NCBI GenBank assembly: GCA_964512985.1
Contig: CAZELI010000011.1
Coordinates: forward strand, 383-64,382
Source of the DNA: an uncultured Gammaproteobacteria bacterium
GTDB lineage: Bacteria > Cyanobacteriota > Vampirovibrionia > LMEP-6097
DNA length: 64,000 nucleotides
Direction of reading: 5' to 3'
Shown here: in pieces, positions 17,834-52,920 of the stretch
Layout: each line of letters opens with the position of its first letter
How positions within the stretch are numbered: position 1 is the first letter of the stretch
Notes under the pieces: generated by a model
What the model was told of the DNA's origin: nothing
The model's input: only the letters and a program-made list of their open reading frames with translations
Database searches by the model: none
Made by a program: the position numbers and the translations under genes

Positions 17834-19114
17834 TTATAGTTCTATTTTGTTCAGCAGAAAATAATAAGCTGGAATGAATCTTATTCTTTTACCATCAATT
17901 ATTTCTTCAGTGAACTTGGATCTGGTTATAATTACACCGCCTGTCAAACCATACGCTTGACTAGCTTCCAAAATTCCACCCACCTCTCTATCATAAAGTT
18001 CTTCATCTTCTAAATTAGAGTCCGTAACATTGATCACTGTCACAGGATTAGCACCTTCTACTAGAACAAAATCTAATTCAAAGTTATTTTGGTGGTAATA
18101 AATATTTTTATAGCCACGTCTTCTAAGCTCTATATAGATAGCATTTTCTAGAAGTTTACCAGAATCTAAGGAATGATAAAAAGCATTAGCTTGTCTCAAA
18201 CCCGTATCAATACAGTAAACCTTTTGAGGATTTCTTGCTTGCACTTTAAGATTGCGGTCATATTTCTTTACAAAGAACAGTAAAAATGCCATTTCGCAAT
18301 AATAAGCATAATCTTGTGCCGTGACTACATCTAGACCAAAAGCCTTTTTGATACTAGTAAAACTGTGCTTTGAACTAATATTGCTAAGCAAATATTGAAT
18401 CATTTTAATTAAAGATCCCACATCTCTAATCTGAAATCGCTGAACCAAATCTTTATAGACAATATCATTCAAATACTCTCTCGCTAATAAAGTTTGCGTA
18501 TCATGACCTTTCTGCAAAACTTTCTTTGGAAAACCACCGGTTTGTAGATATTTATCCAAAGCTTTTAGATAGTCGTCATCTTTCTTACAAGTTTTCTTAG
18601 TAAAAAATAAAAATTCTTTAAATGAAAGTGGCCAAATATCAGTCTCAATACATCTTCCAGTCAAAGAAGTTGCAATCTCTGAACTTAGCATCTTAGCTGA
18701 GCTACCAGTTACAATCAAAAAATAACTTTGTGTATCAATTATTTTTCTAGCGTAACGTTCCCAATATGGAATATTATGAACTTCATCCAGAATTAATATC
18801 TCAGGTTTTTTACCATAAATTTTCTTATAAAGCTGTGGCAATGTTTCTAAAAGCATTACATTATTATTTTCAATAAAATAAGGATCTTCAAAATTTATAT
18901 AACAAATCTCTTTAAATTTAGTTTTAGCATTTAATATTGCAATTGAAGTTTTACCACAACGTCTTACTCCTATATAAGCTGCTGCTAAAGATTTATCAAA
19001 TTTACTAGGAACATAACTATCTCGTGCAATAGAATTTTCATCTCGTAACCAATCATTCCAGAATTTGACTATATCCAGTAGGTATATATTTTCCATATGA
19101 TCTGCTTCTTGCAT
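17834..19114 (-). CDS. AAA-ATPase (AAA_14/DUF4143-like), copy 1
   Basis: Walker A GVRRCGKTS and Walker B LILDEVH. The C-terminal ELDFVLVEG...INVT looks like a degenerate nuclease-like motif. Start placed at MQEADHMENIY because TATAAT (19121-19126) lies 6 nt upstream; the track start at 19159 falls inside the repeats. Confidence 0.7.
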   Translation of the reverse strand: MQEADHMENIYLLDIVKFWNDWLRDENSIARDSYVPSKFDKSLAAAYIGVRRCGKTSIAILNAKTKFKEICYINFEDPYFIENNNVMLLETLPQLYKKIYGKKPEILILDEVHNIPYWERYARKIIDTQSYFLIVTGSSAKMLSSEIATSLTGRCIETDIWPLSFKEFLFFTKKTCKKDDDYLKALDKYLQTGGFPKKVLQKGHDTQTLLAREYLNDIVYKDLVQRFQIRDVGSLIKMIQYLLSNISSKHSFTSIKKAFGLDVVTAQDYAYYCEMAFLLFFVKKYDRNLKVQARNPQKVYCIDTGLRQANAFYHSLDSGKLLENAIYIELRRRGYKNIYYHQNNFELDFVLVEGANPVTVINVTDSNLEDEELYDREVGGILEASQAYGLTGGVIITRSKFTEEIIDGKRIRFIPAYYFLLNKIEL

Positions 19115-19117
19115 TTG

Positions 19118-19187
19118 TTGATTATAATCAATATACCATAGTTTGTTGATTATAATCAATATTATAAGGTTTATTGACTATAATCGA
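19118..19187. promoter_or_regulatory. Three 28-bp-spaced copies of a 14-bp palindrome containing TATAAT
   Basis: TTGATTATAATCAA at 19118-19131 and 19146-19159 (both perfect), and TTGACTATAATCGA at 19174-19187. Confidence 0.7.
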
Positions 19188-19252
19188 CAAAATCCACAAA
19201 GGCTAAGTCTACCTTAGTACACTATATGCTATTACCATTTAATCCAATTGAC

Positions 19253-20476
19253 CTAGCGCGACATCCCAAGCTTCTGGGCTTGTTGATAAACTTTACCTTC
19301 AGTAAGAATACTTGGAGCGATAATCACTTCTACATCCTGGAAGTCTTTAAGTGTCTCAGCGCCTAGAGTTGCCATAGATGTTTTGATAGCTCCTAATAAG
19401 TTTTGGCTGCCATCGTCTCTGCGAGCGGGTCCGTGAATGAGTTCGTGAACTGAGCAATCAGTTCCTACATGGATTCTAGTACCACGAGGTAATACTGGAC
19501 TAGGAGTCGCCATACCCCAATGATAACCGCGAGCAGGAGCTTCTTCAGTACGCGCGAATGGCGAACCTATCATCACTGCATCAGCACCACAAGCAAGTGC
19601 CTTACAAATATCACCACCGATGTTCATTCCACCATCACCGATAATTGGTACATAACGTCCAGACTCTTGGAAATAATCATCACGTGCTTGACGACAGTCT
19701 GCTATTGCAGTTGCCATCGGCACTCCGATACCTAATACACCTCTAGATGTACAAGCCGCACCAGGACCGATTCCCACTAAGAGTCCAGCGATACCAGTAC
19801 GCATAAGCTTAAGCGCGATATTATAATCCACACAATTCCCCACTACTACAGGGATCTTAGATTGCTGGCAGAAATCTTCTAAGTTAAGTTCTGACTTAGG
19901 ATCGTAACCAGGCTTAGCTTTATAAGCTTTATGCTCAAGTCCTACTACTGTAGATTGAATTACTAATATATCAGCACCAGCCTCTTCTACCACTCGCCCA
20001 TACTCGTTTGCCATATATGGTGCAATCGAGACTACGACAGGCTTTGATTTATCCTTAAAACTAGCTTTCATTTGCTTAATTACTTTAGCGATTAATTCTT
20101 TCTTGATAGGTTCTTTATAAATCTTCTGCATCAACTCAACAAACTCAGTTTTATCAGCAGCACACATCTCCAAGAGCACCGTAGAATAATCCTCATAACG
20201 AGTATAAACTCCTAGTAAATTAAGAACTGCCATCACTCCTTGATCTGCGATCAAACTAGCATTACCAGGACTCACAACAGAATCCATCGCACTTGCAATA
20301 ATGGGCACTTCAAACTTAAAACCACCTAGCTCCCAGCTAGTATCACAAAGCTCTACATCGAGAGTATTACCAGCAGGTACTAAAGCTATCTCATCAAACC
20401 CATATGCTCTTCGAGTCTTCTTCCCTAGACCAATCGACATTGCGCTTATCTCAGGACTCAATATAGCATTACTCAT
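19253..20476 (-). CDS. IMP dehydrogenase/GMP reductase-related protein lacking CBS domains (GuaB3-like)
   Basis: TIM-barrel IMPDH-like motifs: GIGPGAACTSR (catalytic Cys loop), IIGDGGM, MIGSPFA. Confidence 0.7.
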   Translation of the reverse strand: MSNAILSPEISAMSIGLGKKTRRAYGFDEIALVPAGNTLDVELCDTSWELGGFKFEVPIIASAMDSVVSPGNASLIADQGVMAVLNLLGVYTRYEDYSTVLLEMCAADKTEFVELMQKIYKEPIKKELIAKVIKQMKASFKDKSKPVVVSIAPYMANEYGRVVEEAGADILVIQSTVVGLEHKAYKAKPGYDPKSELNLEDFCQQSKIPVVVGNCVDYNIALKLMRTGIAGLLVGIGPGAACTSRGVLGIGVPMATAIADCRQARDDYFQESGRYVPIIGDGGMNIGGDICKALACGADAVMIGSPFARTEEAPARGYHWGMATPSPVLPRGTRIHVGTDCSVHELIHGPARRDDGSQNLLGAIKTSMATLGAETLKDFQDVEVIIAPSILTEGKVYQQAQKLGMSR

Positions 20477-20527
20477 CTAGTCTATTTTAGCCCATTAGAG
20501 ATTGTGCCGAAAGCTTCTTAACATTTC

Positions 20528-24240: not shown

Positions 24241-24257
24241 GCTTTAATTATAGCGTA

Positions 24258-26051: not shown

Positions 26052-26094
26052 TTTCGTCATCCTAAGTATAGGCATCAACTTAAGCCGAAAAGCT

Positions 26095-26203
26095 CGTCAT
26101 CCTGAGGAGGAGCCGAAGGCGACGACGTCAGGATCCACTACTAAGAAACATCATGAATAGTGGATCCTGACGTCGCAACCTACGGTTGCTCCTCAGGATG
26201 ACG
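26095..26203. mobile_element. REPIN/MITE-like palindromic doublet
   Basis: CGTCATCCTGAGGAGGAGCCGAAGGCGACGACGTCAGGATCCAC, a 21-nt spacer, then GTGGATCCTGACGTCGCAACCTACGGTTGCTCCTCAGGATGACG. Ends 6 nt from the cysN stop. A 12-nt fragment CGTCATCCTAAG is at 26055-26066. Confidence 0.9.
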
Positions 26204-26208
26204 AGACC

Positions 26209-27507: not shown

Positions 27508-27508
27508 T

Positions 27509-29845: not shown

Positions 29846-29847
29846 CT

Positions 29848-31360: not shown

Positions 31361-31366
31361 ATTACT

Positions 31367-31669: not shown

Positions 31670-31685
31670 ACCATTCAAGTAATTA

Positions 31686-34176: not shown

Positions 34177-34222
34177 AATAATAAGGGTAACATAGAATTA
34201 TTTCTAAAATCTCATTTTTGTT

Positions 34223-35635
34223 TTAGCTCAGTTGCTTAATTAACCTAGGTATCTCAGCTATAGCATAAAACGGAACTGATAAAACATTGTTATCGAATTC
34301 TAATTTCTTCTGACAAATTCTTATACCAAAAGGTATTTTATATTCTTCTAATAAAAGATGAAGGCTTTTAAGTCGACCTGTTTTCCCTGATTTAACTTCT
34401 ATAGGCCAGATCCGTCCTTTATAAGCTATAAGATAGTCTATCTCAGCTGAGCTATTTTTTGCTTCACGTTCCCAATAATAAAGCTTAGGCTCTTCATAAT
34501 AAGGTTTAAGAGATAAAAGTTCTTGTCCAACGAATTGCTCAGTGATTGCTCCTTGAGCCAAAGAGTGAAAACTCTCGCTATTTAATATCTCATTAATTAT
34601 TTCACTATCACTTCCTAATAATTTACAAGCAAGACCAACATCTAAAAAAAGAGTCTTAAAATGTTTTTCTGAAGAGTTCGCTTCTAATGGCAAACCTGCA
34701 GCACTAGCTTTACGAATCTTCAGTAGTACACCAACATCAACTAAGAGTTCATATGCTTTTTTTATTTCCTGTGAATTTAATTCTTTATCTATTTTAGAAT
34801 ATTTAAATTTCTCACCAATTTGCTTCACCGAATTAATAAAAACAGACTCTAAATATTTATGCATAGCCAAATTGGAATATTTACCAAAATCTTTTTTATA
34901 AGAATATAGAATCTTACTTAATTCCTTATCGATAGCTTCTGATCTCTCACCAAGTTCTTTTTCTTTCAGAAAATATTGATTTAATACAGCTGGCATACCA
35001 CCTAAATAGAAATACTTCTTCACTTCATCCAATAATTTATTATGGCTAAAATCATCCAATGGTTTATTTAGATCCATTAACTTGATTTCGTTAACTATAT
35101 CTTTGGAGCCATTATATCTTTCGATTAGAAATTCATAGAAAGTTAATGGTCCAAGGAAAAGGAAATCAATTCTTCCAACTGGTATAGAAATTTCACCGGA
35201 ATTAAGCAAGAACTCCAACAATGAACCAGTTGCAATTATATGCAAGCCTGGATTCTTCTCGAAAAAATACCGCATCGCAATTATCGCCTCTGGGCAATCT
35301 TGCACTTCATCTAAAAAAACTAAAGTTTTTTGATTAATAAGTTTTTTACCAAATTCTTGAAAAATTTTATTACCAATTTTTTGGGGATCAGGATCAGAGA
35401 AAATATTTTTGTATTCAAAATTAAATTCAAAATTAATATAAATATATTCATCAAAATTTTCTATCGCAAACTTCTCAATAACATAAGTTTTCCCAACCTG
35501 CCTTGCTCCTCTTAATAAAACAGGATTAGGTTTTTCTGCCCGTCTCCACTTCATCAATTCTTCTTCTATAAATCTATACATATCCTTGTTATTATACCCT
35601 TTACTTGAAAACAACCCCATATTTTCAAGTATCAT
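34223..35635 (-). CDS. AAA-ATPase with C-terminal PD-(D/E)xK-like motif (AAA_14/DUF4143-like), copy 2
   Basis: Walker A GARQVGKTY, Walker B VFLDEVQ, C-terminal AEIDYLIAYKGRIWPIEVKSGK. Confidence 0.7.
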   Translation of the reverse strand: MILENMGLFSSKGYNNKDMYRFIEEELMKWRRAEKPNPVLLRGARQVGKTYVIEKFAIENFDEYIYINFEFNFEYKNIFSDPDPQKIGNKIFQEFGKKLINQKTLVFLDEVQDCPEAIIAMRYFFEKNPGLHIIATGSLLEFLLNSGEISIPVGRIDFLFLGPLTFYEFLIERYNGSKDIVNEIKLMDLNKPLDDFSHNKLLDEVKKYFYLGGMPAVLNQYFLKEKELGERSEAIDKELSKILYSYKKDFGKYSNLAMHKYLESVFINSVKQIGEKFKYSKIDKELNSQEIKKAYELLVDVGVLLKIRKASAAGLPLEANSSEKHFKTLFLDVGLACKLLGSDSEIINEILNSESFHSLAQGAITEQFVGQELLSLKPYYEEPKLYYWEREAKNSSAEIDYLIAYKGRIWPIEVKSGKTGRLKSLHLLLEEYKIPFGIRICQKKLEFDNNVLSVPFYAIAEIPRLIKQLS

Positions 35636-35708
35636 ACATAAAAATTACCTTGTATTTTTAACTCTTACACTTAAAAATACAGGGTGATTTCGAAATTTAA
35701 GGAAAATC

Positions 35709-38473: not shown

Positions 38474-38527
38474 CCTCGTTCTATTATATTATACTGGAAT
38501 AGGCATCATGCAAACTGAATTAGATTT

Positions 38528-40288: not shown

Positions 40289-40312
40289 GCATGGTAATAT
40301 TTTGATATAACT

Positions 40313-40675
40313 ATGCTTTCAGATAAAGACACATTGCTGACAACTAAGACTCAAAACTCTGAAACACAAGATTTTCAATTTTTAGCGACTCTAGATGAAT
40401 TAGAACCTCATGGACAATTAACTCGTTGGGTTAACGATCATGATATTTTACTTTATAAACACGAAGGTGAATTGAAAGCTATTAGTAATATTTGTCCGCA
40501 TTTTGGTGGACCAGTGGGTTACCGTAAGGCTAAAGATGGAGTGTTTACTTGTCTTTGGCATAATTGGCAATACTCATGCGCCGATGGCTCTTGCAAGACC
40601 AATCCAGGGTTACCTTTAAGACAATACCAGATCAGAGTCGATGGCAATAAAGTTTACGTAAATCTACTAGGATAA
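40313..40675 (+). CDS. Rieske [2Fe-2S] domain protein
   Basis: CPHFGGP ... CLWHNWQ (CxH...CxxH). Confidence 0.85.
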   Translation: MLSDKDTLLTTKTQNSETQDFQFLATLDELEPHGQLTRWVNDHDILLYKHEGELKAISNICPHFGGPVGYRKAKDGVFTCLWHNWQYSCADGSCKTNPGLPLRQYQIRVDGNKVYVNLLG

Positions 40676-40678
40676 ATT

Positions 40679-41368
40679 ATGGCAAAGAACAAAAGTAACA
40701 GAGTTAAATTAACTTTAGAACTTGAACTAGAGCAAGACTGCCCCAAAGAAGTAATAATGTGGAACTATTATGACCACGAGCATTTACTCGGTACCCACCA
40801 AAAACTCTATAGAGAAGCCAGGGTTCTAGCCGAGAGAGATGACTGGGCACTAGTCTATAGAAGAGCCAAGATTCCTATAGTACCATTTGAGAATGAAGGT
40901 ATTGGATTTCAGTATATGCCTGAACCACACATTATGAGAACGGTTCATAAGGATGTATGGGGCTTACTAGATATGGAAGTGCATTTTTTTGATCTTCCTA
41001 ACAATAGATCTAAAATGAAAATCATTTATGGTCTTTATGTACCTAGTTGGCTCAAGTTTGTAGAGCCCGCATTTAGAGTGGTTTTCACTTCTTGGCTTAA
41101 GAACGCCTGGGCAGAAGACGTACCGATGAGGAATCGAAGATGGAAAGTTCACACTCTTGGATTTAAAGATTTTCATGGTATAGATTGGATCAATAAGAAA
41201 CAAACTAAACCAGCAGACATCAATCCAGGTCCATATATATTCGAGCCACCCGTTGCCTCTCTTCCTACAATTAAAAATGAAGGGATGTTTAGACCAGATA
41301 TTAGTGACGTAGAAATACCTACTGAGGATTACAAAGTTGACTATCAAGCAGGAGTTACAAATCATTGA
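40679..41368 (+). CDS. Non-heme iron catalytic domain of a Rieske-type oxygenase, encoded as a separate polypeptide
   Basis: WNYYDHEHLLGTH matches N-x2-D-x2-H-x4-H. Starts 3 nt after the Rieske gene stop. Confidence 0.6.
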   Translation: MAKNKSNRVKLTLELELEQDCPKEVIMWNYYDHEHLLGTHQKLYREARVLAERDDWALVYRRAKIPIVPFENEGIGFQYMPEPHIMRTVHKDVWGLLDMEVHFFDLPNNRSKMKIIYGLYVPSWLKFVEPAFRVVFTSWLKNAWAEDVPMRNRRWKVHTLGFKDFHGIDWINKKQTKPADINPGPYIFEPPVASLPTIKNEGMFRPDISDVEIPTEDYKVDYQAGVTNH

Positions 41369-42258
41369 GTTGTATAATCTGTAATTCTAATCAAGAACTC
41401 AGATTTACAGGACTCAAGGACTGGGAATATGAAACTTGCGACCACCTTACTTTCTACCAATGCTCTAACTGTGAACTCATATCACAAAAGCCCCTACCAA
41501 GTATCGATATAATTTCAAGTTTTTATCCTGCTAATTATCGAAACTATTTACCAATTCATTCAGGAATTTTCTCTCAATTAAAAAAAATTAAATTCCGAGA
41601 TCAAGCAAAGAGACTTAGTAAGTTTTTTGATAAAGATGCAAGAATCCTAGAGATTGGTTATGGTAATGGAGAACTGCTCTTAGCATTTAAAGATCTTGGT
41701 TATCAGAATTTATATGGTTGTGATTTTAGTAGTTCTGGCGCTGAAAGACTTATAGATAGAGGGATTCAGGTAGAGATCGTTAACGCTGAGCAGGGGATTC
41801 CCTTTACACAAGAGTTTGATATTATTCTTCTCAATAATGTTATAGAACATTTCTTAAATCCAGTGGCAATTCTGAAGAACTGTTATGCCAAACTTAAACC
41901 CAGAGGTCAAGTGATTTTATTCACTCCTAATTCTAAAGCCATAGAGTTCAGTATCTTTGGAAAGTATTGGGCTGGATTACATATCCCAAGACATATACAT
42001 TTATTCAATGAGTATAATTTGAAACTTATGGCTGAGAACTCCAATTTTACTTCTGTAAATTTTTATGCTGATCTAGACCCAGCTCAATGGGCGATATCTG
42101 TACAGAACCTACTTCAAGACACCAGGCTATTTCATACTAAATTACAAAACGGCATGTCGTTCTACATGATTCCTCTAAGCCTACTTTGTATCCCTATTGC
42201 AATCCTACAAAGACTCTTAGGAAATAGTACTGGTATCTTGAGTATTTTAAAGAAGTAA
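41365..42258 (+). CDS. Class I SAM-dependent methyltransferase with an N-terminal Cys4 zinc ribbon
   Basis: CIICNS...CSNC; ILEIGYGNGE; NNVIEHFLNP. Confidence 0.75.
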   Translation: MSCIICNSNQELRFTGLKDWEYETCDHLTFYQCSNCELISQKPLPSIDIISSFYPANYRNYLPIHSGIFSQLKKIKFRDQAKRLSKFFDKDARILEIGYGNGELLLAFKDLGYQNLYGCDFSSSGAERLIDRGIQVEIVNAEQGIPFTQEFDIILLNNVIEHFLNPVAILKNCYAKLKPRGQVILFTPNSKAIEFSIFGKYWAGLHIPRHIHLFNEYNLKLMAENSNFTSVNFYADLDPAQWAISVQNLLQDTRLFHTKLQNGMSFYMIPLSLLCIPIAILQRLLGNSTGILSILKK

Positions 42259-42270
42259 AATCAATTATCT

Positions 42271-43878
42271 ATGGAACTAATCAAAAAAAATAAAGAACTC
42301 ATAATTTTAGCTATCCTAGCTTTGTTTGTAAGGTTTTCTTATCAACTGCCTGTATTGTTTATTGACGACTCAGTAAAGTTCTTTGTCCCACTGCAAATAG
42401 TTTACGATCATAACTTCAGCTGGATTCTATCTACCATCAATTTCAGTCTCTTTGACAGAATCATCAGCTACTTCGTTCAATCGCTTGATAATGGTTCTGT
42501 AGCTAATATGATTACTTTACAAAAATTATTCGGAACCCTTTCAACAATAGTGTTCTATAAACTATCACTAAATCTAACTAATCAAAGAAAGCTACTAAGT
42601 CTTATTATGGCAATATTTTTTTCACTTAATCCACTGATGCTTTACATAGAACAATTAATAATGCCAGAAGCATTGTTCATGTTCATGCAACTACTTGCAA
42701 GCTTGCTACTTTATAAATTCCTTGAAATAAACACTCCAATTAAATATGCATATGGCGTAGGCTTAGGAATTTTAGCTGGACTCATAGTCATAACTAAACA
42801 TAGCGGTGAGACCTGGTCTAACTGCCTAATAGCAACTGTACTTATCATAGGCATCTTTCAATTCTTTAAAGAGAAAAACAAAAACCTAATAATTTTAGGA
42901 GTGATTCTATTAAGTATGAGCTTTTTAATTAAGCTACCTATAATGCTGCATAATTATCAAAAGCACAAGGCATTTACAGTAAGCTTATTTGATGTGAAAG
43001 GCGCATTATTACTAGCTCTCACGCCAGAGATGATCGAGTGTAATCCTACAGATAAATACCCCTTCCTCACTACTGCTATTAAACAATACAGTGCATATTT
43101 CGAAACACAATACAAGGGAACCGCTCCTGTTGCAACAGAAGAACAAAAATTAGAAGCTTTCACTAAGGCTGTTTATACTTTAAACATTCCTGGCCGCGAG
43201 GGACAGTTACAAGATCCTATAACAGGAGGGATGATTTCATCTAAGCAATGGTCTAAGATTACTGCTGAGTATTTCGTAAGTACCGTTATCAAGAATCCAC
43301 TAAGAACCTTAGAAAGAATATGGAAGATCTCTCTTCCTAATTTAATTAATAGTAATAATTTAACCTTAAATGAATTTCGCAGATCCTCAAGACCAGGCTT
43401 AAACTATGATGTTATGCAATTCACTTTAGAACCATATTCATTTACAGAAAGGCTTGACCCTAAATTAAAAAACTCTAGAATAGTGAAAGGCGCTGAGATA
43501 GAAGAGTTCAAAGAACATCACGAGAAAGAATTCTTAATCATGCGCGGAAGAGAAACCAATGAGGCCTTCGTTATAGAAAAGCAAGGTATCTCACTATGGT
43601 TGCAAGATTTATTCACTAAATTTTCTCCTGACAAAATTACTTTAACTTTATTTGTTTTAAGTCTAATTTATTTTCTGATTAATATTCGTGGACTTAAGCC
43701 TAATTTATTTCAGATCTATATACTTGCTACTACTGCAGTTTACTTCTTCTTGCCATTATTAATTACAGGTGGGGAACCTAGATATAGACTACAGTTCATA
43801 CCCTTTATGCTTTTATTTATTAGCTATGTTCTAGCAACAGTTTTAAATAAAAGAGATGGTAATTATGAAAACAATTAA
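42271..43878 (+). CDS. GT-C-like (ArnT/PMT-like) polytopic membrane glycosyltransferase candidate
   Basis: TM1 followed by LPVLFIDDS (acidic pair in the first loop). Multiple TM helices and a soluble insert. Confidence 0.5.
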   Translation: MELIKKNKELIILAILALFVRFSYQLPVLFIDDSVKFFVPLQIVYDHNFSWILSTINFSLFDRIISYFVQSLDNGSVANMITLQKLFGTLSTIVFYKLSLNLTNQRKLLSLIMAIFFSLNPLMLYIEQLIMPEALFMFMQLLASLLLYKFLEINTPIKYAYGVGLGILAGLIVITKHSGETWSNCLIATVLIIGIFQFFKEKNKNLIILGVILLSMSFLIKLPIMLHNYQKHKAFTVSLFDVKGALLLALTPEMIECNPTDKYPFLTTAIKQYSAYFETQYKGTAPVATEEQKLEAFTKAVYTLNIPGREGQLQDPITGGMISSKQWSKITAEYFVSTVIKNPLRTLERIWKISLPNLINSNNLTLNEFRRSSRPGLNYDVMQFTLEPYSFTERLDPKLKNSRIVKGAEIEEFKEHHEKEFLIMRGRETNEAFVIEKQGISLWLQDLFTKFSPDKITLTLFVLSLIYFLINIRGLKPNLFQIYILATTAVYFFLPLLITGGEPRYRLQFIPFMLLFISYVLATVLNKRDGNYENN

Positions 43879-44893
43879 AGAGCATAGTCATTTAATATGG
43901 TTGATAGTTATAACCTCAATAATAAGGTTTACTAATAATTTACCAGTATTGTTCTTGAATAATGCTGAGTCACAGAGTTTTAAAGCTTTACTAGAACAAC
44001 TACAGTTTGATCCGCTTAATTTTATTACGCTTAATAAGTTTATTGCTGTATTCTCTGTTATAGCTTTTTATTCTATTGCTAAAAAGCTTACTAATGGTAA
44101 TAAGTTTATAAGTTTTCTTGGTACTTTGATTTTCAGCTTAGATCCATTGAATTTATATATAGAACAGTCGATAATGCCTGAGACTATTATGGTTTTTGCC
44201 TTATTAATTACAACTTGGTTCGTTATTAATATTCTTGATGGATCTAAGCCAAGTAGAGTCATGATATTGCTAATAGTTGTACTAAGCCTGGCTAATATTT
44301 TATTAGCGATTTCAGTAAAAAATACTCAAGATGTATCGCATAAGACTCCAATTCTTGATATTTTATTTTTGGAAAATTTAAACTTAAATCATTTCTATAA
44401 ATCCACTAAGAAAGATTTGGATTATGAAGTAGCCCAATATACTATCATTCCTTTTTCAGAGAAACTGAATGTTGATCCACTAGTCGATGGTAGACCATTG
44501 GTAATTGGCAAAGATTCTATTAATCAGTTTAAAGAGACTCAGACTAATAAATCTTTTTTAATAATGATTAACCAAGATACTGACCTCGCATTCTCTATAC
44601 CTAAGAATAATATTTCTTTATTTATTCAAGACTTATTCCAAAACTTTCCATTCTCAAGATTTATTATTCCTTTATTTTTGATAATGCTAATTGGTTTTGG
44701 TTCACGTTTATCACGTGAACCAACCTCTCCAAGCGAGTTATATATTTTAGCTTTTGCTTTATTTTATTTGCTTAAGCCAATATTTATTGGGAAAGCAAAT
44801 ATTATGGATAGAATGGAATTTATACCGCTTATGATTTTGTTTGTGGCTTATCGTCTAGCTATTTTTAACCCTACTTTAATCAAAAAGTGGTAA
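43856..44893 (+). CDS. Shortened tandem paralog of 42271-43878 with the DD pair replaced by NN
   Basis: Shared blocks: LPVLF(ID/LN)(D/N), L(N/D)PL(M/N)LYIEQ(L/S)IMPE, (F/EF)IP(F/L)M(L/I)LF. The alternative start is ATG at 43865. Confidence 0.5.
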   Translation: MVIMKTIKEHSHLIWLIVITSIIRFTNNLPVLFLNNAESQSFKALLEQLQFDPLNFITLNKFIAVFSVIAFYSIAKKLTNGNKFISFLGTLIFSLDPLNLYIEQSIMPETIMVFALLITTWFVINILDGSKPSRVMILLIVVLSLANILLAISVKNTQDVSHKTPILDILFLENLNLNHFYKSTKKDLDYEVAQYTIIPFSEKLNVDPLVDGRPLVIGKDSINQFKETQTNKSFLIMINQDTDLAFSIPKNNISLFIQDLFQNFPFSRFIIPLFLIMLIGFGSRLSREPTSPSELYILAFALFYLLKPIFIGKANIMDRMEFIPLMILFVAYRLAIFNPTLIKKW

Positions 44894-44904
44894 AATAACT
44901 CATT

Positions 44905-45183
44905 ATGAGTCAAAAGAAGTTAAAGTCAGTCAAAACAATCAAAGGCATTACAGTCAGATTTGACAATGAAATCTATGAAAAATTACAGCTAAAAGCCAAA
45001 AGTGAGAACCGTAGTCTTTCTAATTTTATTGAAACTTTCGTGATGGAAAATCTAGAAGACAAAAATCTAATAGATGAATTTGAAATGCAATCTATTCTTG
45101 CTAATAAGGAGCTACTAAAGGGTTTAGAGCAAGGTCATAAAGATGCCAAAGCTGGCAGAGGTAGATTTGTATCAGATTTTTGA
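44905..45183 (+). CDS. Ribbon-helix-helix (CopG-like) antitoxin
   Basis: ITVRFDNEIYEKLQLKAKSENRSLSNFIETFV. TAAAAT lies 8 nt before the ATG. Confidence 0.65.
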   Translation: MSQKKLKSVKTIKGITVRFDNEIYEKLQLKAKSENRSLSNFIETFVMENLEDKNLIDEFEMQSILANKELLKGLEQGHKDAKAGRGRFVSDF

Positions 45184-45442
45184 AACTAATTATTTTATCA
45201 AAAAAGTAGAAAAGGTTTTTAACAAGAATCTGCAAAATAGTCTATTTAAAAAACTCAGGTCTTATATCTATCCACAATTAGCAAATAATCCATATCTGGG
45301 CAACAATATCAAGAAACTTCGCAATTATGAACCCGAAACATGGAGATATAGAATCGGAGATTATAGATTATTTTTCAGTATTGACGAAGAAGCTAAGATT
45401 GTATATATCTTTGACTTCGAGCATCGTAAAGATGCGTATTGA
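45167..45442 (+). CDS. RelE/ParE-family toxin
   Basis: WRYRIGDYRLFFSIDEEAKIVYIFDFEHRKDAY. The track start is ATG at 45143. TTG at 45167 gives the more typical N-terminus (M)YQIFETNYFIKK. Confidence 0.7.
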   Translation: MYQIFETNYFIKKVEKVFNKNLQNSLFKKLRSYIYPQLANNPYLGNNIKKLRNYEPETWRYRIGDYRLFFSIDEEAKIVYIFDFEHRKDAY

Positions 45443-45636
45443 AGACGACATTGACGTCCTTCTCTGCAAATAATTTTTCAACCATGTCGCCAACTAATTT
45501 TGTCAACTTCATATAGAGAGGTCCATTAACACGAATCCCAACCCTGCTTGGATCAAGAACTTGTCGTTCATCCAGAAGAGTGTAAAATAAAAGAAGTTAG
45601 AATGAATCAGATCAATAAAAGAGAGGGCACTGAAAT

Positions 45637-46206
45637 ATGAAAGTTTTGCTACTGAGTCCAGATCCAGATCGCATAAAAATTTTCTTACTGAAAAATGGAG
45701 ATGAAGTTATAAATGGCAGTGCTGATTTTCTCTTCGATTTAGATTTTCTTCAAGACAATAATATAGAGTTTATAATAAGTTATCGTTATACGAAAATCAT
45801 TAAAGCTGAAGTAATAAAAGCGTTTAACAACAAAATTATCAATCTGCATCCTTCTTTATTACCTTATAACAGAGGAAGGCATCCTAATCTATGGAGCTTT
45901 ATTGACAATACTCCAAAAGGAGTGACCATCCATTATATAGATGAAGGTGTGGACACTGGAGATATCATCGCTCAGAAAGAGCTTGAATTTGAGGATAGTG
46001 AAACTTTATCTAGCTCTTACTGGAAGGGTTTAAGAGCATTAGAGGATTTATTTATGGAAGAATGGTCTAACATTAAATCTGGTAATATTACTCGCATCAA
46101 ACAAGCAGGAGAAGGAAGCTTTCACTTAGGTAAGGACTTAGACTCAGTTTCACACTTACTAGATAAAGGCTGGGAGACATCAGTATCTAAATTAAAATCG
46201 CCATAA
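45637..46206 (+). CDS. Formyltransferase-domain protein (sugar N-formyltransferase candidate)
   Basis: IINLHPSLLPYNRGRHP and GVDTGDII (the N/H/D triad context of the Formyl_trans_N domain). An SD-like GAGAGGG is upstream. Confidence 0.75.
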   Translation: MKVLLLSPDPDRIKIFLLKNGDEVINGSADFLFDLDFLQDNNIEFIISYRYTKIIKAEVIKAFNNKIINLHPSLLPYNRGRHPNLWSFIDNTPKGVTIHYIDEGVDTGDIIAQKELEFEDSETLSSSYWKGLRALEDLFMEEWSNIKSGNITRIKQAGEGSFHLGKDLDSVSHLLDKGWETSVSKLKSP

Positions 46207-47111
46207 GTGTCTCTGATAATGGCATAGGGTCTGGGCTTAACTTCTATAAAAATCTTAGACAAGTAAATGCCAATAATACCTAGAACAAAAATTGTGATTC
46301 CACCAAAGAATAGGTTTAGAACCATAATTGAAACCCAACCTGCAATCTTAATATCATAAAAGATTTTTGCTGTAATTAAATAAATAATCGCAATAGACGC
46401 GAAAAAAGTTATAACAAGTCCAAAATAAAAAACTAACCACAATGGTATTGCAGTAGAGGAGGTAACAGTGTTAACAAGTAAATTGATTTTCCTAACCAAA
46501 TCATATGAACTAGATCCTTTGTGTCCTTTGGTTACATATATAGCCTTTGATTTAAAACCATTTAAAGCAATAATAATTGAGAACGTCAATTCATGCTCTC
46601 TGAAAGACACAAGATTTTTAACAAATTTCTTGGTCATTAATCGCACCGTAAGAAAATTAGTTGGCACCATATTATTAGTTAACGCATTAATAAATCTATA
46701 GTATAAATAACCACTTATTTTTTCAAAGAGTCCACCTTTGCGCACTTTTTGAACTCCATATACCATATCAAGATCTTCACTTAAAAGTTCATGCCAAAAT
46801 TCATTAAATAACTCAGGAGGCTCTTCCAGATCACAATCTATCAAAAAAACATAATCACCTGAAGCATAAGAGAGTCCAAGCATTTTAGCTTTATGGTGTC
46901 CAAAATTCTTTGAGAAATCAATAATTTTCACTCGATTATTTCTCTCCTGAATAGCCAATGCCACTTCCAGAGAGTTGTCTGGAGAACCATCATTGACAAA
47001 AATTATTTCGTAATCCTCAGTAACTTTTTTAATAGATTCACTGATACGTGAATAAAACTCCTCAATATGAGGAGCCGATTTATACAAAGTGGAAACAACG
47101 GAAAGCTTCAT
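46122..47111 (-). CDS. GT2 polyprenyl-phosphate glycosyltransferase (ArnC/GtrB-like)
   Basis: IFVNDGSPDNS and LIDCDLEEPPE, plus two C-terminal TM helices. The 3' end overlaps the formyltransferase gene convergently by 85 nt. Confidence 0.8.
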   Translation of the reverse strand: MKLSVVSTLYKSAPHIEEFYSRISESIKKVTEDYEIIFVNDGSPDNSLEVALAIQERNNRVKIIDFSKNFGHHKAKMLGLSYASGDYVFLIDCDLEEPPELFNEFWHELLSEDLDMVYGVQKVRKGGLFEKISGYLYYRFINALTNNMVPTNFLTVRLMTKKFVKNLVSFREHELTFSIIIALNGFKSKAIYVTKGHKGSSSYDLVRKINLLVNTVTSSTAIPLWLVFYFGLVITFFASIAIIYLITAKIFYDIKIAGWVSIMVLNLFFGGITIFVLGIIGIYLSKIFIEVKPRPYAIIRDTYGDFNLDTDVSQPLSSKCETESKSLPK

Positions 47112-47114
47112 AAA

Positions 47115-48149
47115 TTATTTTTTTAGTGTGTTGATCATCATAGGTTCATCTTTAATAAATCTATCCTTATAAACTATGGACGAGACGATACATGTACCTC
47201 TAATTTTAGTTGAATCCATGATGATAGTTTCCTGCAATTCGGAATTATCAATGACACAGTTGTCTGCAATACTGGTAAAAGGTCCTATAACCGAATTATT
47301 AATCCTGACATTATTACCGATGTAAATAGGCCCCATTAAATTAGAGTTACTAATACTTGTATTTTCACTCAATGCTATATTGCCTAATAAATATGACTTC
47401 TCGACATCAGCATTAATGCTATCAAACTTCCTTGCAGCAAGTAACATACATTTATTAGCATTAAGCAATCCATCTCTAGTACCTGAATCAAACCAATAGG
47501 AATGCAGAATACTGGTTTGAACTTCCTGACCCAATTCAACCTGAGAAGCAATGGCGTCAGTGATTTCCAGTTCTCCTCGGGCTGACGCTTTAATATTCCT
47601 AATAGCATCAAAAATCTTATTAGAGAAAATATACACTCCGACAATTGCATAATCAGAGACAAAGGTCTTAGGTTTCTCTACTAACTTTTGTGCTTTACCA
47701 CTTTCATCGAAAGCGACTACTCCAAAAGCATAAGCTCTATCTACTTGCTTCAGCAGCAAAAGCGTATCGGCTTTAGTTTCATAGAAAGTATCAACTAAAT
47801 CTGCTAAAGGTTTGTCGAATAAATTATCACCTAGAAGGGTTATAAAATGTTCACTCGTTCCAATAAAATCCCGAGTGATCCCAATAGCATGAGCAAGTCC
47901 TTTGGGTTCATCTTGATAAATAAAACTTATATTTGCTTTGAATTTCCGCTTGGCCACAATTTCTTCAATCATGCCACCCGTTTCAGGGCTGACGACAATA
48001 GCAATCTCTCTGATATTCGCATTAAGTAAATATTCAATGGAATAAAATAATATTGGTTTGCCTAGGACAGGTACTAGTTGTTTAGGATAATTATCAGTAA
48101 TTGGTGCTAACCTTGTTCCTTTACCACCAGCTAAAATTACTCCCTTCAT
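47115..48149 (-). CDS. rmlA: Glucose-1-phosphate thymidylyltransferase, long form with a C-terminal left-handed beta-helix
   Basis: MKGVILAGGKGTRLAPIT...KQLVPV, with C-terminal hexapeptide-like repeats. TATAAT (48158-48163) lies 8 nt before the ATG. Confidence 0.8.
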   Translation of the reverse strand: MKGVILAGGKGTRLAPITDNYPKQLVPVLGKPILFYSIEYLLNANIREIAIVVSPETGGMIEEIVAKRKFKANISFIYQDEPKGLAHAIGITRDFIGTSEHFITLLGDNLFDKPLADLVDTFYETKADTLLLLKQVDRAYAFGVVAFDESGKAQKLVEKPKTFVSDYAIVGVYIFSNKIFDAIRNIKASARGELEITDAIASQVELGQEVQTSILHSYWFDSGTRDGLLNANKCMLLAARKFDSINADVEKSYLLGNIALSENTSISNSNLMGPIYIGNNVRINNSVIGPFTSIADNCVIDNSELQETIIMDSTKIRGTCIVSSIVYKDRFIKDEPMMINTLKK

Positions 48150-48240
48150 TGCAATTAATTATAACAAGGTTCGAGAACTTACACCATTCTCTTATGCTGA
48201 GATTAACCTACAATAAATGATTATTCTAGGTTAATATATA

Positions 48241-50445
48241 TTGGTGCCAGTATTAGCCTTAATTCTCACCCTCATAGCTCTGACCTTCATCGGGAAAGTG
48301 CTAGCAGAAAAACTCATTTCGCTGCTGGAACAAAAGAGAAGCAATGAACTCTTGGTCATCGAGAAGCTAGTCCTTTGTTTTATATCTGGATTAAGTTTTT
48401 TTATTCTTATCACTCACTTGTTGTCACTTCTAACACAAAGCTTTAGATTTAGTATTCATTGTAGCTTGGGAATTTTAACAGTAGCTTCGATAGTTATTTA
48501 TTTAAGAAATGGAAAGAACAGGCTAAATTTTCTTTCCATATTCTTCAAAGACAGTAGTCTCTATATATTTAGTTCTGCTTTGTTAGTTGCAATTATAATG
48601 TATTTTCGTGATCAGATTTTTGGCAGCCCTGATCGAATTCATTTAGCATTTATTAGTAGTATCGCTAATAATGATATCTATCCACTCAAACTACCAGTAG
48701 ATCAAAGCTTCTCCCTTGCAAATTATCATTATGGTACCGATCTTATCGGTGCAACGATAAAAGTTATCAGTCAACTTCCAATATGGGAAGTAATGAGCAT
48801 ACAAATTGCATTAGGCAGTTTTTTGGCATTTATGGGTCTCTTTATTTTACTGAAGACCTTTATTCAATCTAATAAAGCTTCTCTTGCTGCTACGTTTTTT
48901 GTTTTATTTTTTACATCCATAAACAGCATAGATTATTTCATTAGAGAAATAAGTAAGATTACTAGCCTGCCCATTGATAACTTTCTTAAAAATTGGCTTA
49001 TGGTTTCATGGACTTCTATTAGTCACATGACCTCACAATTAAGATTGCCTTCGCAAAATATAGCATTCACTTTTTGTTTTACTTTGCTCATAATTAGTTT
49101 TGTATATTTCAGTCATTTCTTTAAGGGAAAAACTCAAGAGTTAAATATTTCTTTCGCAATAACAACTTCCACTGTCTCATTTATGCTGTTTTTTTGCTAT
49201 CCAGCTTTTTGGTATCCGAGCCTTGCTGCAATTACTTTTTATGGTTTCATTGACATCATCCAAGAGAAAAATTATTTAAGAAATAGAACTCTTAATCTTT
49301 TATTTTTTCTCTTCTTACTATATCTCGGTAAGATCCTAACTTTTTGTCCTAGCGAAGCATTTTCTAGTGATGTTAAAACTTTAGTCTTTGATCCGTCGCT
49401 GACTTGGGTTCACTGGGGCAAAGCATATATTATGTATTTTTATGATGTATCCTATCTGAAAACTCTTGCTGTGAGTTTTGATCCTGTAACTGATAGTAAT
49501 TTACTCTTCATCCCATTATTTTCTTCAATAAGTTTTAGAGATTTTGGATTCTGCATAATCACAGCCTCAATACTAGCTATCAGTCAATTCAAGAAAAAAT
49601 ATAATCTTAATTACATAATTTTTTATGCTGCAATTATAAGTCTTATAATACCGTTCGCTTTTAAATTTATTTTACGCCCAATCGAGATTACCAGATTTAT
49701 ATTATTTGCCAAGATTGCAGCTTCGATCTTCACAGCGAGTATTGTATTTAATTGGCTTGCAAGCATTAAATCTTGGACAAAGTATGTGATCTATGTTTTA
49801 CTAGGAATCTTACTGGTACCAGGCTTGATCTCTATCTTACCTTATAAATCATTAGCCATATTACCAAGTAAAAGCTTTACTAATGAAGAGGAAATAATTA
49901 TAACTAGTCTTGAAGCGATCCACAAATCAGGAGATGTTCTGCTCGATCCTAAAGATTATGAGATTGGAGCTGACTTCAGTGCTTTTGCTGGTTTTTATGG
50001 AGTGGGTGGTCAGCTTTATAAGAATGATTATGCTACTAAAAGAACTGCTTATGAATTACTTAATCCACTCTTACTAAAAGAACTACACGTCAAATATGTC
50101 ATTGTTTATAATGATATATCTGTAAGCCAAAAAGCCAAGCAACGTTTAGAAAATCCAAAACTGTTTAAGAATGTTCAAACAAACTCCACGACTCGTTTGT
50201 ATGAATTTATATATCAAGCAGGAGATATTGATGAAACTGTATTTAAGAATGAATACAAATGGGCTTTGGGTTACCCAAGCTCTACAAGTTTTCAATTAAT
50301 CAAAGATCAACAGGGTAAAATTTTTATATCTAATAATAGAGAGGAATTAAAAATGATAAAAATTAATCTAAAGAAGTCACTAGCCAAAGACAATCCCTTA
50401 GTTGCTTTTTGGCTCAATGAACAAGCTATCATTAATGATGAATAA
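48241..50445 (+). CDS. Large polytopic membrane protein (GT-C/YfhO-like candidate) with a C-terminal soluble domain
   Basis: 734 aa with about 14 or more hydrophobic segments and a roughly 200-aa soluble C-terminus. TTG or GTG start at 48241 or 48244. Confidence 0.45.
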   Translation: MVPVLALILTLIALTFIGKVLAEKLISLLEQKRSNELLVIEKLVLCFISGLSFFILITHLLSLLTQSFRFSIHCSLGILTVASIVIYLRNGKNRLNFLSIFFKDSSLYIFSSALLVAIIMYFRDQIFGSPDRIHLAFISSIANNDIYPLKLPVDQSFSLANYHYGTDLIGATIKVISQLPIWEVMSIQIALGSFLAFMGLFILLKTFIQSNKASLAATFFVLFFTSINSIDYFIREISKITSLPIDNFLKNWLMVSWTSISHMTSQLRLPSQNIAFTFCFTLLIISFVYFSHFFKGKTQELNISFAITTSTVSFMLFFCYPAFWYPSLAAITFYGFIDIIQEKNYLRNRTLNLLFFLFLLYLGKILTFCPSEAFSSDVKTLVFDPSLTWVHWGKAYIMYFYDVSYLKTLAVSFDPVTDSNLLFIPLFSSISFRDFGFCIITASILAISQFKKKYNLNYIIFYAAIISLIIPFAFKFILRPIEITRFILFAKIAASIFTASIVFNWLASIKSWTKYVIYVLLGILLVPGLISILPYKSLAILPSKSFTNEEEIIITSLEAIHKSGDVLLDPKDYEIGADFSAFAGFYGVGGQLYKNDYATKRTAYELLNPLLLKELHVKYVIVYNDISVSQKAKQRLENPKLFKNVQTNSTTRLYEFIYQAGDIDETVFKNEYKWALGYPSSTSFQLIKDQQGKIFISNNREELKMIKINLKKSLAKDNPLVAFWLNEQAIINDE

Positions 50446-51283: not shown

Positions 51284-51294
51284 CACCTGGTAGC

Positions 51295-51539
51295 TTTCAA
51301 TTACCACCAAATAATTTATCAATAATGAACTGCTTACCATTGCACTTCACTATTCTCAATAATGCAGTTATCGGCAATCGCAGTGAAAGGTCCCAGATAG
51401 GTATGAATCCCTAATATTTGAGTCAACATTGTCAAATTTATTGGACTCAATTAAGAGAGTTTTATTAGCATTTAGTAAACCTTCTCTAGTTCCAGAATCA
51501 AACCAATATGAATTAAGAATTGAGCTTTTACCCTTTCAT
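51295..51539 (-). pseudogene. Decayed second copy of rmlA (internal deletion plus frameshifts)
   Basis: Hand translation gives ATG-AAA-GGG (MKG) then a stop. After that come SILNSYWFDSGTREGLLNANK (compare RmlA SILHSYWFDSGTRDGLLNANK) and, in another frame, GPFTAIADNCIIENSE (compare GPFTSIADNCVIDNSE). It keeps its own GGGTATAAT box (51549-51557). Confidence 0.75.
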
Positions 51540-51573
51540 TACTGTTAGATTATACCCTGATTTAGAATTTATT

Positions 51574-52920
51574 TTAACCAGTCCACTCTCGAGTAAAAGT
51601 ACAAGCTTTAGCAAGATAAATTGGCAATTTACAAACTTTACGCTCACTATTATAACTAAAATTATTAGCACTAAAAATTATTTTATAGGGAGAGTCATAT
51701 TTCTTAGCAAACACATCAATGCTTCTTGCTTTAGTATTAAAACCAGACTTTACCTCTATTGGAATTTGCTTGCCTGTTATCGTTCTAATGAATTCAACTT
51801 CAGACTTATTTTCTTCCCATGCATATAATTGATCATTTCGACCTAACTCTTGAGAGAATTCTTGAGCTATAAAATTCTCTGCAATATAACCCTTATAAGT
51901 TCCATAGTTATAATCCATCATAGTGATGGGATCAAGATTACCCAAAGCACCAAGTATCCCCACATCATAGAGAAAGAGCTTGAAACGATTCTCTTCTGTG
52001 TAAGCCTTAATAGGTTGCTCACCATGATTAGCAATTAAAACTTTGATTATCAAATTACTAGCTCTAAGCCAATCAATAGCACCACTGAGTTGATCATAGC
52101 CTTTAACTTTAGGAACTACATTCTTGAAAGTAAATTTAGGAGCATTTCCGTCTAGTCTCCGAGCCAACTGTTCTGGAATATTAGAGAACACTCTTTCTAT
52201 ATGCATAGCATTGACTGAGCCACAGTGTTTAGCCATATCTGCCATATAAACATTAATTATCTCAGATTGTTTTTCTCTGATAGTTGTTAAAGCATCAATC
52301 TGATTAGCTTTGAGTTGATTATAAGTTGAGATGACCTCAGGTAAACCTCCAATGACAAGGTATTGCTTCCACAAATCAAAAAGTTCTTTATGCATAAATT
52401 CAGGAATACGCTCTCCCCACTGCCAGGCATTAATAAATTCATATTTCTCATTTTCATCTAGACCAAGTAAAAATTCTGTAAATGTCATAGGAAACATATT
52501 GATCAAATCAACCTTACCAACAGGGAAAGAAGCTTCTCCATATTTAACTCCTAACAACGAACCCGCTGAAGCAAGTGCAAGTTCAGGCATATCCTCACAA
52601 AAATATTTCAAACTTGTGATTGCTTTAGGGCAAGTTTGAATTTCATCAAAAATCAATAAATCCGTTTTGATATTAACTTTGGTTTTTAGCTTACGCTCAA
52701 GTTCTTGTATAATTCTTAAAGGATCTAAATCATAGTCAAAAATTTCGCACAGACTGATGTTTTTCTCGAAATTCACATAGTGATAATTTTGAAAGAATTC
52801 TTCCCCACAATACTTAAGCGCATAAGTTTTACCTACTTGCCTCGCTCCCAAAACTATTAACGGCTTACGCTTAGGCTTAAGGCCCCAAGTTTTGATTTGT
52901 TCATAAATCAACCTACGCAT
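51574..52920 (-). CDS. AAA-ATPase with C-terminal PD-(D/E)xK-like motif (AAA_14/DUF4143-like), copy 3
   Basis: Walker A GARQVGKTY, Walker B LIFDEIQ, C-terminal SEVEFIRTITGKQIPIEVKSGF. TATAAT (52929-52934) lies 8 nt before the ATG. Confidence 0.7.
   Translation of the reverse strand: MRRLIYEQIKTWGLKPKRKPLIVLGARQVGKTYALKYCGEEFFQNYHYVNFEKNISLCEIFDYDLDPLRIIQELERKLKTKVNIKTDLLIFDEIQTCPKAITSLKYFCEDMPELALASAGSLLGVKYGEASFPVGKVDLINMFPMTFTEFLLGLDENEKYEFINAWQWGERIPEFMHKELFDLWKQYLVIGGLPEVISTYNQLKANQIDALTTIREKQSEIINVYMADMAKHCGSVNAMHIERVFSNIPEQLARRLDGNAPKFTFKNVVPKVKGYDQLSGAIDWLRASNLIIKVLIANHGEQPIKAYTEENRFKLFLYDVGILGALGNLDPITMMDYNYGTYKGYIAENFIAQEFSQELGRNDQLYAWEENKSEVEFIRTITGKQIPIEVKSGFNTKARSIDVFAKKYDSPYKIIFSANNFSYNSERKVCKLPIYLAKACTFTREWTG

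Follow-up and report, generated by a model that had tools for sequence, protein, structure and literature searches.

Three genes of one ATPase family lie on the minus strand of a 64,000-nt stretch of contig CAZELI010000011.1 (assembly GCA_964512985.1), referred to here as the window; unless stated otherwise, positions are those of the window (Table 1). The genome to which it belongs comprises 2.31 Mb in 76 contigs (87 % complete, 36.8 % G+C), and the named homologues of its GltA (82–83 % identical) are proteins of ‘Candidatus Caenarcaniphilales’ and ‘Candidatus Melainabacteria’ metagenome-assembled genomes (MAGs), which places it as Melainabacteria/Caenarcaniphilales-like, among the non-photosynthetic relatives of cyanobacteria. 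An earlier reading of the bare sequence (the original prediction) had placed three AAA_14/DUF4143 genes at these coordinates, which is borne out by the listing of open reading frames (ORFs) and by Pfam matches above the cut-offs. All three ORFs are intact, with start and stop codons confirmed. For copy 2 the longest ORF had been taken as the gene; the true start is probably Met19, giving 452 rather than 470 aa, because homologues begin at this residue and GGGTATAAT lies 9 nt before its ATG. From the ORF listing, an alternative upstream start is possible for copy 1 (TTG at 19159).

Table 1. Coordinates of the three genes, their upstream boxes and a neighbouring gene remnant in the window
Feature	Position	Strand	Description
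Copy 1	17834..19114	−	AAA_14 + DUF4143 ATPase, 426 aa; PADLOC PDLC04787 subfamily
Copy 2	34223..35581 (longest ORF from 35635)	−	AAA_14 + DUF4143 ATPase-nuclease (predicted), 452 aa
Copy 3	51574..52920	−	AAA_14 + DUF4143 ATPase-nuclease (predicted), 448 aa; PADLOC PDLC04786 subfamily
Copy 1 operator-like array	19118..19187	−	Three 14-bp palindromic boxes, 28-bp period
Copy 1 boxes	19118–19131 and 19146–19159; 19174–19187	−	TTGATTATAATCAA (first two positions); TCGATTATAGTCAA (third position)
Copy 1 −10 box	19121–19126		TATAAT within the proximal box, 6 nt before ATG
Copy 2 regulatory region (putative)	35591..35707	−	14-mer ATTTTCCTTAAATT at 35694–35707; box CCCTGTATTTTTAAG at 35670–35684
Copy 2 further boxes	35648–35662; 35604–35617	−	Inverted GTTAAAAATACAAGG; degenerate GGGTTGTTTTCAAG
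Copy 2 −10 box	35591–35596		TATAAT, 9 nt before Met19
Copy 3 operator-like array	52929..52993	−	ATTTTTCTTAAATT at 52980–52993 and ATTTTCCTTAAATT at 52947–52960, exactly 33 bp apart
Copy 3 −10 box	52929–52934		TATAAT, 8 nt before ATG
rmlA-like nucleotidyltransferase remnant	51340..51557	− (strand taken from intact G001 gene)	Decayed; intact at the same place in congener G001

All three products match AAA_14 (E 6e-32, 9e-25 and 1.5e-23 for copies 1, 2 and 3, respectively; 110.8, 87.6 and 83.6 bits against a gathering cut-off of 27 bits) and, C-terminal to the ATPase, DUF4143 (E 3.5e-22, 1.2e-29 and 3.3e-19; 79.3, 103.6 and 69.6 bits against 28.1 bits). No NCBIfam model matches the three proteins. 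The PDC-S01 profiles of PADLOC are matched from end to end, with a separate best sub-profile for each copy (copy 1, PDLC04787, 6e-98; copy 2, PDLC04788, 1.2e-125; copy 3, PDLC04786, 3.2e-126). The absence of an established function, stated in the original prediction, agrees with the listing of the family as an untested candidate, PDC-S01. Alignments confirm the motifs as they had been read: Walker A (GxxxxGK[ST]; IGVRRCGKT, RGARQVGKT and LGARQVGKT in copies 1, 2 and 3) and Walker B (hhhDE; LILDEVH, VFLDEVQ and LIFDEIQ) are intact in all three, and the C-terminal motif is ELDFV...INVT in copy 1, AEIDY...PIEVKSG in copy 2 and SEVEF...PIEVKSG in copy 3. Pairwise identity is about 18–32 %, depending on the alignment, in keeping with the view that the copies are too diverged to be recent duplicates.

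A full-length AlphaFold model of copy 2, built on a 50-sequence alignment (pLDDT 90.5, pTM 0.90), consists of an AAA+ core at residues ~20–175, a helical lid, a winged helix at ~259–330 (helices 259–272 and 288–300 with strands 304–309 and 322–330) and a C-terminal alpha/beta domain at ~355–470. The top matches of the whole model in the PDB are the archaeal AAA+ protein SSO1545 (2fna) and Orc1/Cdc6 on origin DNA (2qby; Foldseek E 3e-7 for 2qby_A), followed by STAND proteins (plant NLRs, Avs5, NLRP9, the apoptosome), RuvB and ORC subunits; the copy 2 sequence itself has no match in a search of the PDB. On this model, copy 2 would be an AAA+ ATPase of Orc1/Cdc6- or STAND-like type that bears a lid and a winged helix and ends in a PD-(D/E)xK-type domain; copy 3 has its Pfam domains and motifs in common with copy 2. 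A STAND-type C-terminal repeat sensor (TPR, WD40 or LRR) was not found, as there is no Pfam repeat domain and the model ends in the nuclease-fold domain.

The C-terminal domain of copy 2 modelled alone (118 residues, pLDDT 92.6) has the order helix, three strands, helix, strand, as in restriction-type nucleases. Its Foldseek matches, though weak, are nearly all PD-(D/E)xK proteins (McrC, Cdn1, DdmD, Bax1, SfsA, RecU, VRR_NUC, Card1 and Cas4), which supports the domain type originally proposed. The D...(D/E)xK residues are located on model strands 398–405 and 408–414, with E366 from the preceding helix. Invariant residues in one alignment (A1; numbered from 35635) are G43, R45, Q46, G48, K49, D109, E110, E398, E413 and K415; of the nuclease-type residues, the 50-sequence alignment shows E366, E413 and K415 without variation and D400 with almost none. 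The nuclease-type motif of copy 3 is EVEF...IEVK. A Pfam NERD match reaches 23.3 bits against a cut-off of 22.1, and the C-terminal profile compared with PDB sequences yields a marginal match at the D...ExK motif of Cas4 (E 0.14). In a superfamily survey, DUF4143 is group 100 of the PD-(D/E)XK superfamily, with its function given as ‘unknown’ (PMC3424549). The corresponding motif of copy 1 had been called degenerate. It does depart from the canonical form, the ExK glutamate and lysine being missing, yet the copy-1 subfamily throughout reads (E)xDF...IQV(S/C)Y, with INVT in copy 1 itself. Since the whole subfamily is without ExK, the motif is, by an alignment from which two misassigned ORFs (labelled G013 and G009) are left out, a conserved subfamily trait and not decay, and members of this subfamily probably act without canonical nuclease chemistry or via other residues.

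The three genes of the window are part of a much larger set. DUF4143 matches number 20 in the genome, all with open frames, and fall into a clade of eight (with copy 3), a pair (copy 2), a trio (copy 1), a clade of four and two singletons. The highest identity between any two is 62 %, which rules out recent duplication. The expansion is lineage-wide: genomes of the same taxonomic family (1.4–3.1 Mb) have 2–56 copies each, with a median near 19, whereas most other families of the class have 0–1. From these copy numbers, the lineage is estimated to give roughly 1–3 % of its DNA to the family. Among close relatives of copy 2, several at loci of the genomes G009, G002 and G025 carry one to three in-frame TAA/TAG stops; because of these stops, some members elsewhere appear to be decaying, while all 20 in the window’s genome are intact. 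The AAA_14/DUF4143 family is multiplied in amoeba-associated Chlamydiae too. In ‘Ca. Neptunochlamydia vexilliferae’ (JAAEJV010000004.1, L154:6001-8523) a tail-to-tail pair of such genes separates lysS/aspS-type tRNA synthetase genes from priA, beside Fic/HTH and PIN/PhdYeFM modules.

Each of the three genes has a predicted promoter of its own. The TATAAT-N6-ATG and TATAAT-N8-ATG arrangements claimed for copies 1 and 3 are present, and copy 2 has GGGTATAAT-N9-ATG before Met19; copies 2 and 3 have a perfect TATAAT and no recognisable −35. As a perfect −10 box lies 6–9 nt before each ATG, the mRNAs would be leaderless or nearly so. Upstream of the 20 paralogs (200 nt each) there is nearly always a TATAAT-like box 6–13 nt before the ATG, and nearly all of these regions also contain two to three gene-specific direct repeats or palindromes, the last of which overlaps that box. 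The upstream repeats are enriched over the other long ORFs of the genome (Mann–Whitney p about 2e-8), and a close −10 box is found in 65 % of paralogs against 28 % of other long ORFs. The TATAAT-Nx-ATG layout as a hallmark of the family is only partly true, given that 28 % of other long ORFs and maf have it. In the genome as a whole, a TATAAT-like hexamer stands 4–13 nt before the ATG of approximately 28 % of long ORFs, and 4 nt before that of maf (17824–17840). Leaderless or near-leaderless transcription may be common in the lineage.

The boxes of copy 1 have no exact occurrence elsewhere in the genome. In copy 2, the core CCyTGTATTTT of the box and of its inverted counterpart is identical to that of homologues from other phyla. 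The 14-mer shared by copies 2 and 3 is located where the original prediction placed it. It had been discounted there as weak evidence, but it has only these two exact occurrences in the 2.3 Mb genome, and it is stronger evidence than assumed because it is one unit of the 33-bp repeat of copy 3. A small terminator-like hairpin of gltA (52994–53008) lies beside the copy 3 array.

Phased arrays of this kind recur well beyond the window. Three tandem units of ~33 bp that begin with CCyTGTATTTT are carried by homologues in Neptunochlamydia and in one Aminicenantes and one gammaproteobacterial MAG. Among 75 metagenome homologues of copy 2 (35–45 % identical), a strong upstream 24-mer self-match is seen in 51 % against 2 % of control windows, and in 34 of 38 cases its period is exactly 33 bp. 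Of their upstream regions, 44 % have the core CCTTGTATTTT (4 % of controls) and 20 % have it in at least two copies (0.1 % of controls), spaced at 33 bp in 17 of 20 cases. The 72 family genes of three congeners behave similarly, with a self-match in 40 % against 2 % of controls and a period of 31–33 bp in 23 of 29, or of 40 bp in three relatives of copy 1. Other clades have other cores (e.g. CCAATGGT), and box type tracks the protein tree (none of 500 shuffles was equally clustered). The boxes of the family are unique in the genome and are conserved between orthologue pairs in which the flanking DNA has diverged. They are repeated downstream of the gene at only 1 of 37 loci, and hence are not transposon ends. 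Given that the boxes are conserved across phyla and track protein clades, the phased arrays are read as the protein’s own operator. In the papers of the searched library that mention DUF4143, the passages around that term contain no discussion of phased promoter arrays.

The neighbourhoods of the three copies are unrelated to one another, as previously stated and as Pfam matches and coordinates of the neighbours confirm. Copy 1 is located between an IMPDH-family gene and maf, the ATG of which follows the copy 1 stop by 7 nt; copy 2 between an Asn_synthase gene and an Epimerase/GDP_Man_Dehyd (dTDP-glucose-dehydratase-like) gene; and copy 3 between citrate synthase (gltA) and a methyltransferase gene. 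Co-orientation with the upstream neighbour is seen in 14 of the 19 paralogs that have one, and the upstream gap is 54–138 nt in 13 of these 19; the downstream gap is −20 to +46 nt in 13 of the 18 paralogs with a downstream neighbour. Of 25 immediate neighbours of the 20 paralogs scanned with Pfam, 17 are housekeeping genes (ligA, recR, gatC, gmk, panC, aroC, alr, pdxJ, a DEAD-box helicase, a cystathionine lyase, an acyl-CoA dehydrogenase, gltA, maf and others of this sort). The cassettes are solitary and extremely compact, standing singly between housekeeping genes, which accords with the self-contained, context-independent placement first suggested. Homologues sampled in other phyla adjoin toxin–antitoxin, Fic and other PDDEXK genes. 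The family is rare both on phages (9 of 50,697 records, mostly unannotated faecal contigs) and on plasmids (59 of 72,556 records).

Presence/absence polymorphism of the three genes, anticipated in the original prediction, is evident on comparison with two members of the same genus, G001 and G002 (the MAGs compared are 78–92 % complete). The GuaB-like, GltA and AsnB proteins of these congeners are 94–97 % identical to those of the window, whereas their best matches to copies 1, 2 and 3 are 43–52 % identical, with better ones (55–61 %) in other genera. On the syntenic contigs, BLASTn finds all three copies absent from these sites in both congeners, and universal synteny is not seen; absence of a gene elsewhere in G001 or G002 could be an assembly gap, but at the empty sites the sequence is contiguous. 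In the window, 1,421 bp separate maf from the IMPDH-family gene, against ~96 bp in G002 and ~125 bp in G001, and the site is empty in both. From the epimerase gene to asnB the window has 1,503 bp and G001 an empty 83 bp, while G002 has another gene of ~1.2 kb. The copy 3 site is occupied in G001 by an intact rmlA-like gene together with a HipA-like kinase gene preceded by a small ORF, and in G002 by ~34 kb of other content. The G001 HipA-like kinase gene (G001:C2:47606-49164, including the upstream ORF of 103 aa) is 66 % identical to the HipA of the window and, with the small ORF, is read as a hipBA-type module. The site downstream of gltA is, by this comparison, a hotspot taken alternately by different conflict-type genes. 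The decayed rmlA copy reported beside copy 3 is confirmed by its intact counterpart in G001; aligned with that gene, the remnant marks the replacement that brought in copy 3.

At the insertion junctions intergenic DNA has been replaced, and neither target duplications nor inverted ends are present at the junctions examined (that of copy 1 by eye and by BLASTn). The reverse case also occurs: a family member of G002 (G002:C5:188515-190679, L247) lies between polyprenyl synthase and Lnt-like genes, where the window (59474–61201) has an unknown ORF of 214 aa and a Big_5 Ig-like protein. Across the genome, G001 matches only 3 of the 20 paralogs at 80 % identity or more (85, 90 and 80 %), and in G002 no counterpart exceeds 65 %. 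Synonymous divergence (dS) between the congeners is large, ~0.65–1.6 for neighbour genes, so the turnover was not instantaneous. The ratio of nonsynonymous divergence (dN) to dS in shared orthologues is 0.03–0.10, as low as in the housekeeping neighbours (GltA left out), with dN 2–4 times higher. Because these ratios reflect purifying selection, the family genes are, as far as sequence comparison can tell, functional while present; they are accessory, with gains and losses of single genes amid housekeeping neighbours.

Several further features of these regions were observed. The first gene of the window (2–1237, minus strand) encodes the HipA-like toxin kinase (Pfam HipA_C and Couple_hipA). 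The glycan-synthesis cluster around copies 2 and 3 (33193–50445) is itself highly variable between congeners, and rmlA-like paralogs occupy differing places in them. The empty region between maf and the IMPDH-family gene in G001 (G001:C54:1086-1212, L152) contains a long perfect palindrome (AGAGAAGCACCTGACTTTACTCGCTTCCGCTTCT ... its reverse complement). It resembles a repetitive extragenic palindrome or a terminator, and is absent from G002 and from the window.

The best explanation of these observations, and a likely one, is that each gene is an autonomous one-gene AAA_14/DUF4143 (COG1373, PDC-S01) cassette with its own array-bearing promoter, accessory to the genome and most likely a conflict system. 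The DNA-binding, ATPase, nuclease and defence activities of the proteins are predicted ones, and the role would be defence against phages or other mobile DNA, possibly combined with addictive or selfish traits. The resting protein would be docked head-to-tail on its own phased boxes, via the winged helix or the nuclease domain, and would thereby repress its own gene. The direct, non-palindromic repeats of 33 bp (three turns of 11 bp) would fit head-to-tail AAA+ oligomers of the DnaA/ORC kind. A trigger would then release or reorganize the oligomer, and ATP-driven oligomerization would bring the nuclease domains together to cut nucleic acid. In favour of defence are the turnover, the toxin–antitoxin module at the same hotspot and the nomination of PDC-S01 itself, which goes back to genes located inside BREX, DISARM and type I restriction–modification (R-M) systems.

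Several points weigh against this explanation. In STAND proteins, DNA binding is not a necessary property of the winged helix. The fold matches of the C-terminal domain are weak, with none at E 0.001 (best 8e-3; TM-score 0.4–0.59), and the promoters are consensus matches, with a −35/−10 pair given by a consensus promoter scanner in copy 1 only. Numbers of 20–56 copies per genome of ~2 Mb are far above what is usual for a defence gene. The enrichment near defence islands to be expected of a defence-type module did not materialize: known defence genes account for 0 of the 25 neighbours scanned, with Pfam and not with PADLOC and with twelve neighbours of the 17 paralogs outside the window left unscanned, and the copies form no defence island. 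Furthermore, in the one phage assay found, made in E. coli B with T4, T5 and T7, the four candidates reported as protective did not include the PDC-S01 gene (10.1101/2024.09.26.614923).

This last result would equally suit purely selfish elements of no benefit to the host, either addictive genes or free-standing homing-type nuclease genes; in the homing form, the nuclease would cut the empty allele of a related genome and the gene would be copied in by recombination repair. Insertion exactly between conserved housekeeping genes, an own promoter, minimal downstream spacers, junctions without target-site duplications or terminal repeats, a presence that differs between close relatives and a very high copy number all agree with such elements. 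So does their rarity on phages and plasmids, which would require that they spread by chromosomal recombination. However, no near-identical copies exist within the genome, and the occupied sites are not common to the congeners, so that neither recent copying nor one element tied to one cognate site is indicated. Retained orthologues are under strong purifying selection, the copy-1 subfamily is without a canonical nuclease site, and intergenic DNA has been replaced rather than cleanly interrupted. A purely selfish nature is judged rather unlikely. A bolder possibility, improbable at present, is that the arrays, beyond being operators, are parking and licensing sites of a sequence-programmed, Orc-like ATPase-nuclease that spreads its own cassette by cutting related, cassette-free chromosomes, a chromosomal ‘intronless homing’. 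It would explain the scarless single landings, the near-complete turnover between congeners and the 20–56 different copies in small genomes.

The housekeeping neighbours, often co-oriented, the intactness of all 20 genes under purifying selection and an overall fold like that of DNA-binding initiators could also describe ordinary cellular paralogs, namely sequence-specific transcription regulators or DNA-maintenance ATPases, multiplied in the lineage to serve housekeeping, whose boxes serve normal autoregulation. Such paralogs would hardly be expected to differ almost wholly between congeners with 94–97 % identical core proteins, to leave empty sites, to number mostly 0–1 in the other families of the class or to carry in-frame stops in several relatives, and the boxes occur only at each gene’s own promoter, so that there is no regulon. 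This possibility is very unlikely. Least credible of all is an accessory ATPase (TniB/IstB-like) from a transposon or insertion sequence now devoid of a transposase: copy 2 has a weak TniB match (E 0.0078, below the cut-off) and an AAA+ protein with a restriction-fold nuclease recalls TnsC and TnsA of Tn7, but no transposase gene adjoins any of the 20 copies among the neighbours scanned, and the lack of target duplications, of terminal inverted repeats and, but for a single locus, of a downstream box copy led to the rejection of this reading.

The locus bears on a widespread annotation, since PDC-S01 reportedly ranks fourth in frequency among the ‘defence’ calls for prokaryotic genomes (PMC12988326). 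Empty sites, turnover and strong purifying selection are natural-history evidence of a kind that counts in databases do not readily yield. To these the window adds replacement by hipBA or other genes, 17 of 20 paralogs private to one species, expansion to 20–56 copies in a Melainabacteria lineage, a subfamily without the catalytic ExK and controlled confirmation of phased promoter arrays. The private phased boxes offer a direct experimental handle on binding, autoregulation and oligomerization, with the ExK-less subfamily as a natural control for the role of the nuclease. Should the function prove selfish and not defensive, many automated ‘defensome’ counts would need re-reading.

Among known systems, PDC-S01 (AAA_14, PF13173, with DUF4143, PF13635; COG1373) is the one that the three genes match from end to end and in both Pfam domains. 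PDC-S01 comprises single-gene systems in which an ATPase is fused to a PD-(D/E)xK domain (PMC12988326), and the three genes are alike in this. The PDC-S01 nominees are embedded in defence systems, whereas the genes described here each stand alone among housekeeping genes, 20 to a genome. Orc1/Cdc6 and the SSO1545-type Arch_ATPase proteins (2qby, 2fna) share the AAA+ module plus winged helix and a gene located beside phased repeats, origin recognition box (ORB) elements being placed beside archaeal orc1/cdc6 genes. In contrast to Orc1/Cdc6, the family has an extra C-terminal nuclease-fold domain, sequence identity is only 12–15 %, and 20 scattered copies cannot all be origins. McrBC likewise combines an AAA+ NTPase with a PD-(D/E)xK nuclease, and McrC is the top C-terminal match, though at E 8e-3 the modelled likeness is too weak for a claim of homology. 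The present proteins also differ from McrBC in being one polypeptide rather than two subunits, in having no McrB-type N-terminal reader domain and in an ATPase of the initiator/STAND-like clade. STAND NTPases (Avs/NLR-like) differ by their C-terminal repeat sensor.

Phased, gene-specific boxes that travel with their gene are known from the controller (C) proteins and C-boxes of R-M systems and from plasmid iterons with autoregulated rep genes. The analogy is functional, as in each case the gene whose promoter is overlain by such boxes is potentially dangerous or sensitive to dosage. Unlike C-protein systems, the cassettes have no separate regulator gene, so the ATPase-nuclease itself would be the binder, and no replication function is implied. 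Free-standing homing endonuclease genes (seg/mob-type) are likewise compact, self-promoted, wedged between conserved genes and polymorphic between relatives; the three genes differ from these in protein family, with an AAA+ motor, in residing on a chromosome and not on a phage, and in having no near-identical copies. They are not members of the Orc1/Cdc6 initiators, the STAND NTPases or McrBC, but belong to the known PDC-S01 family.

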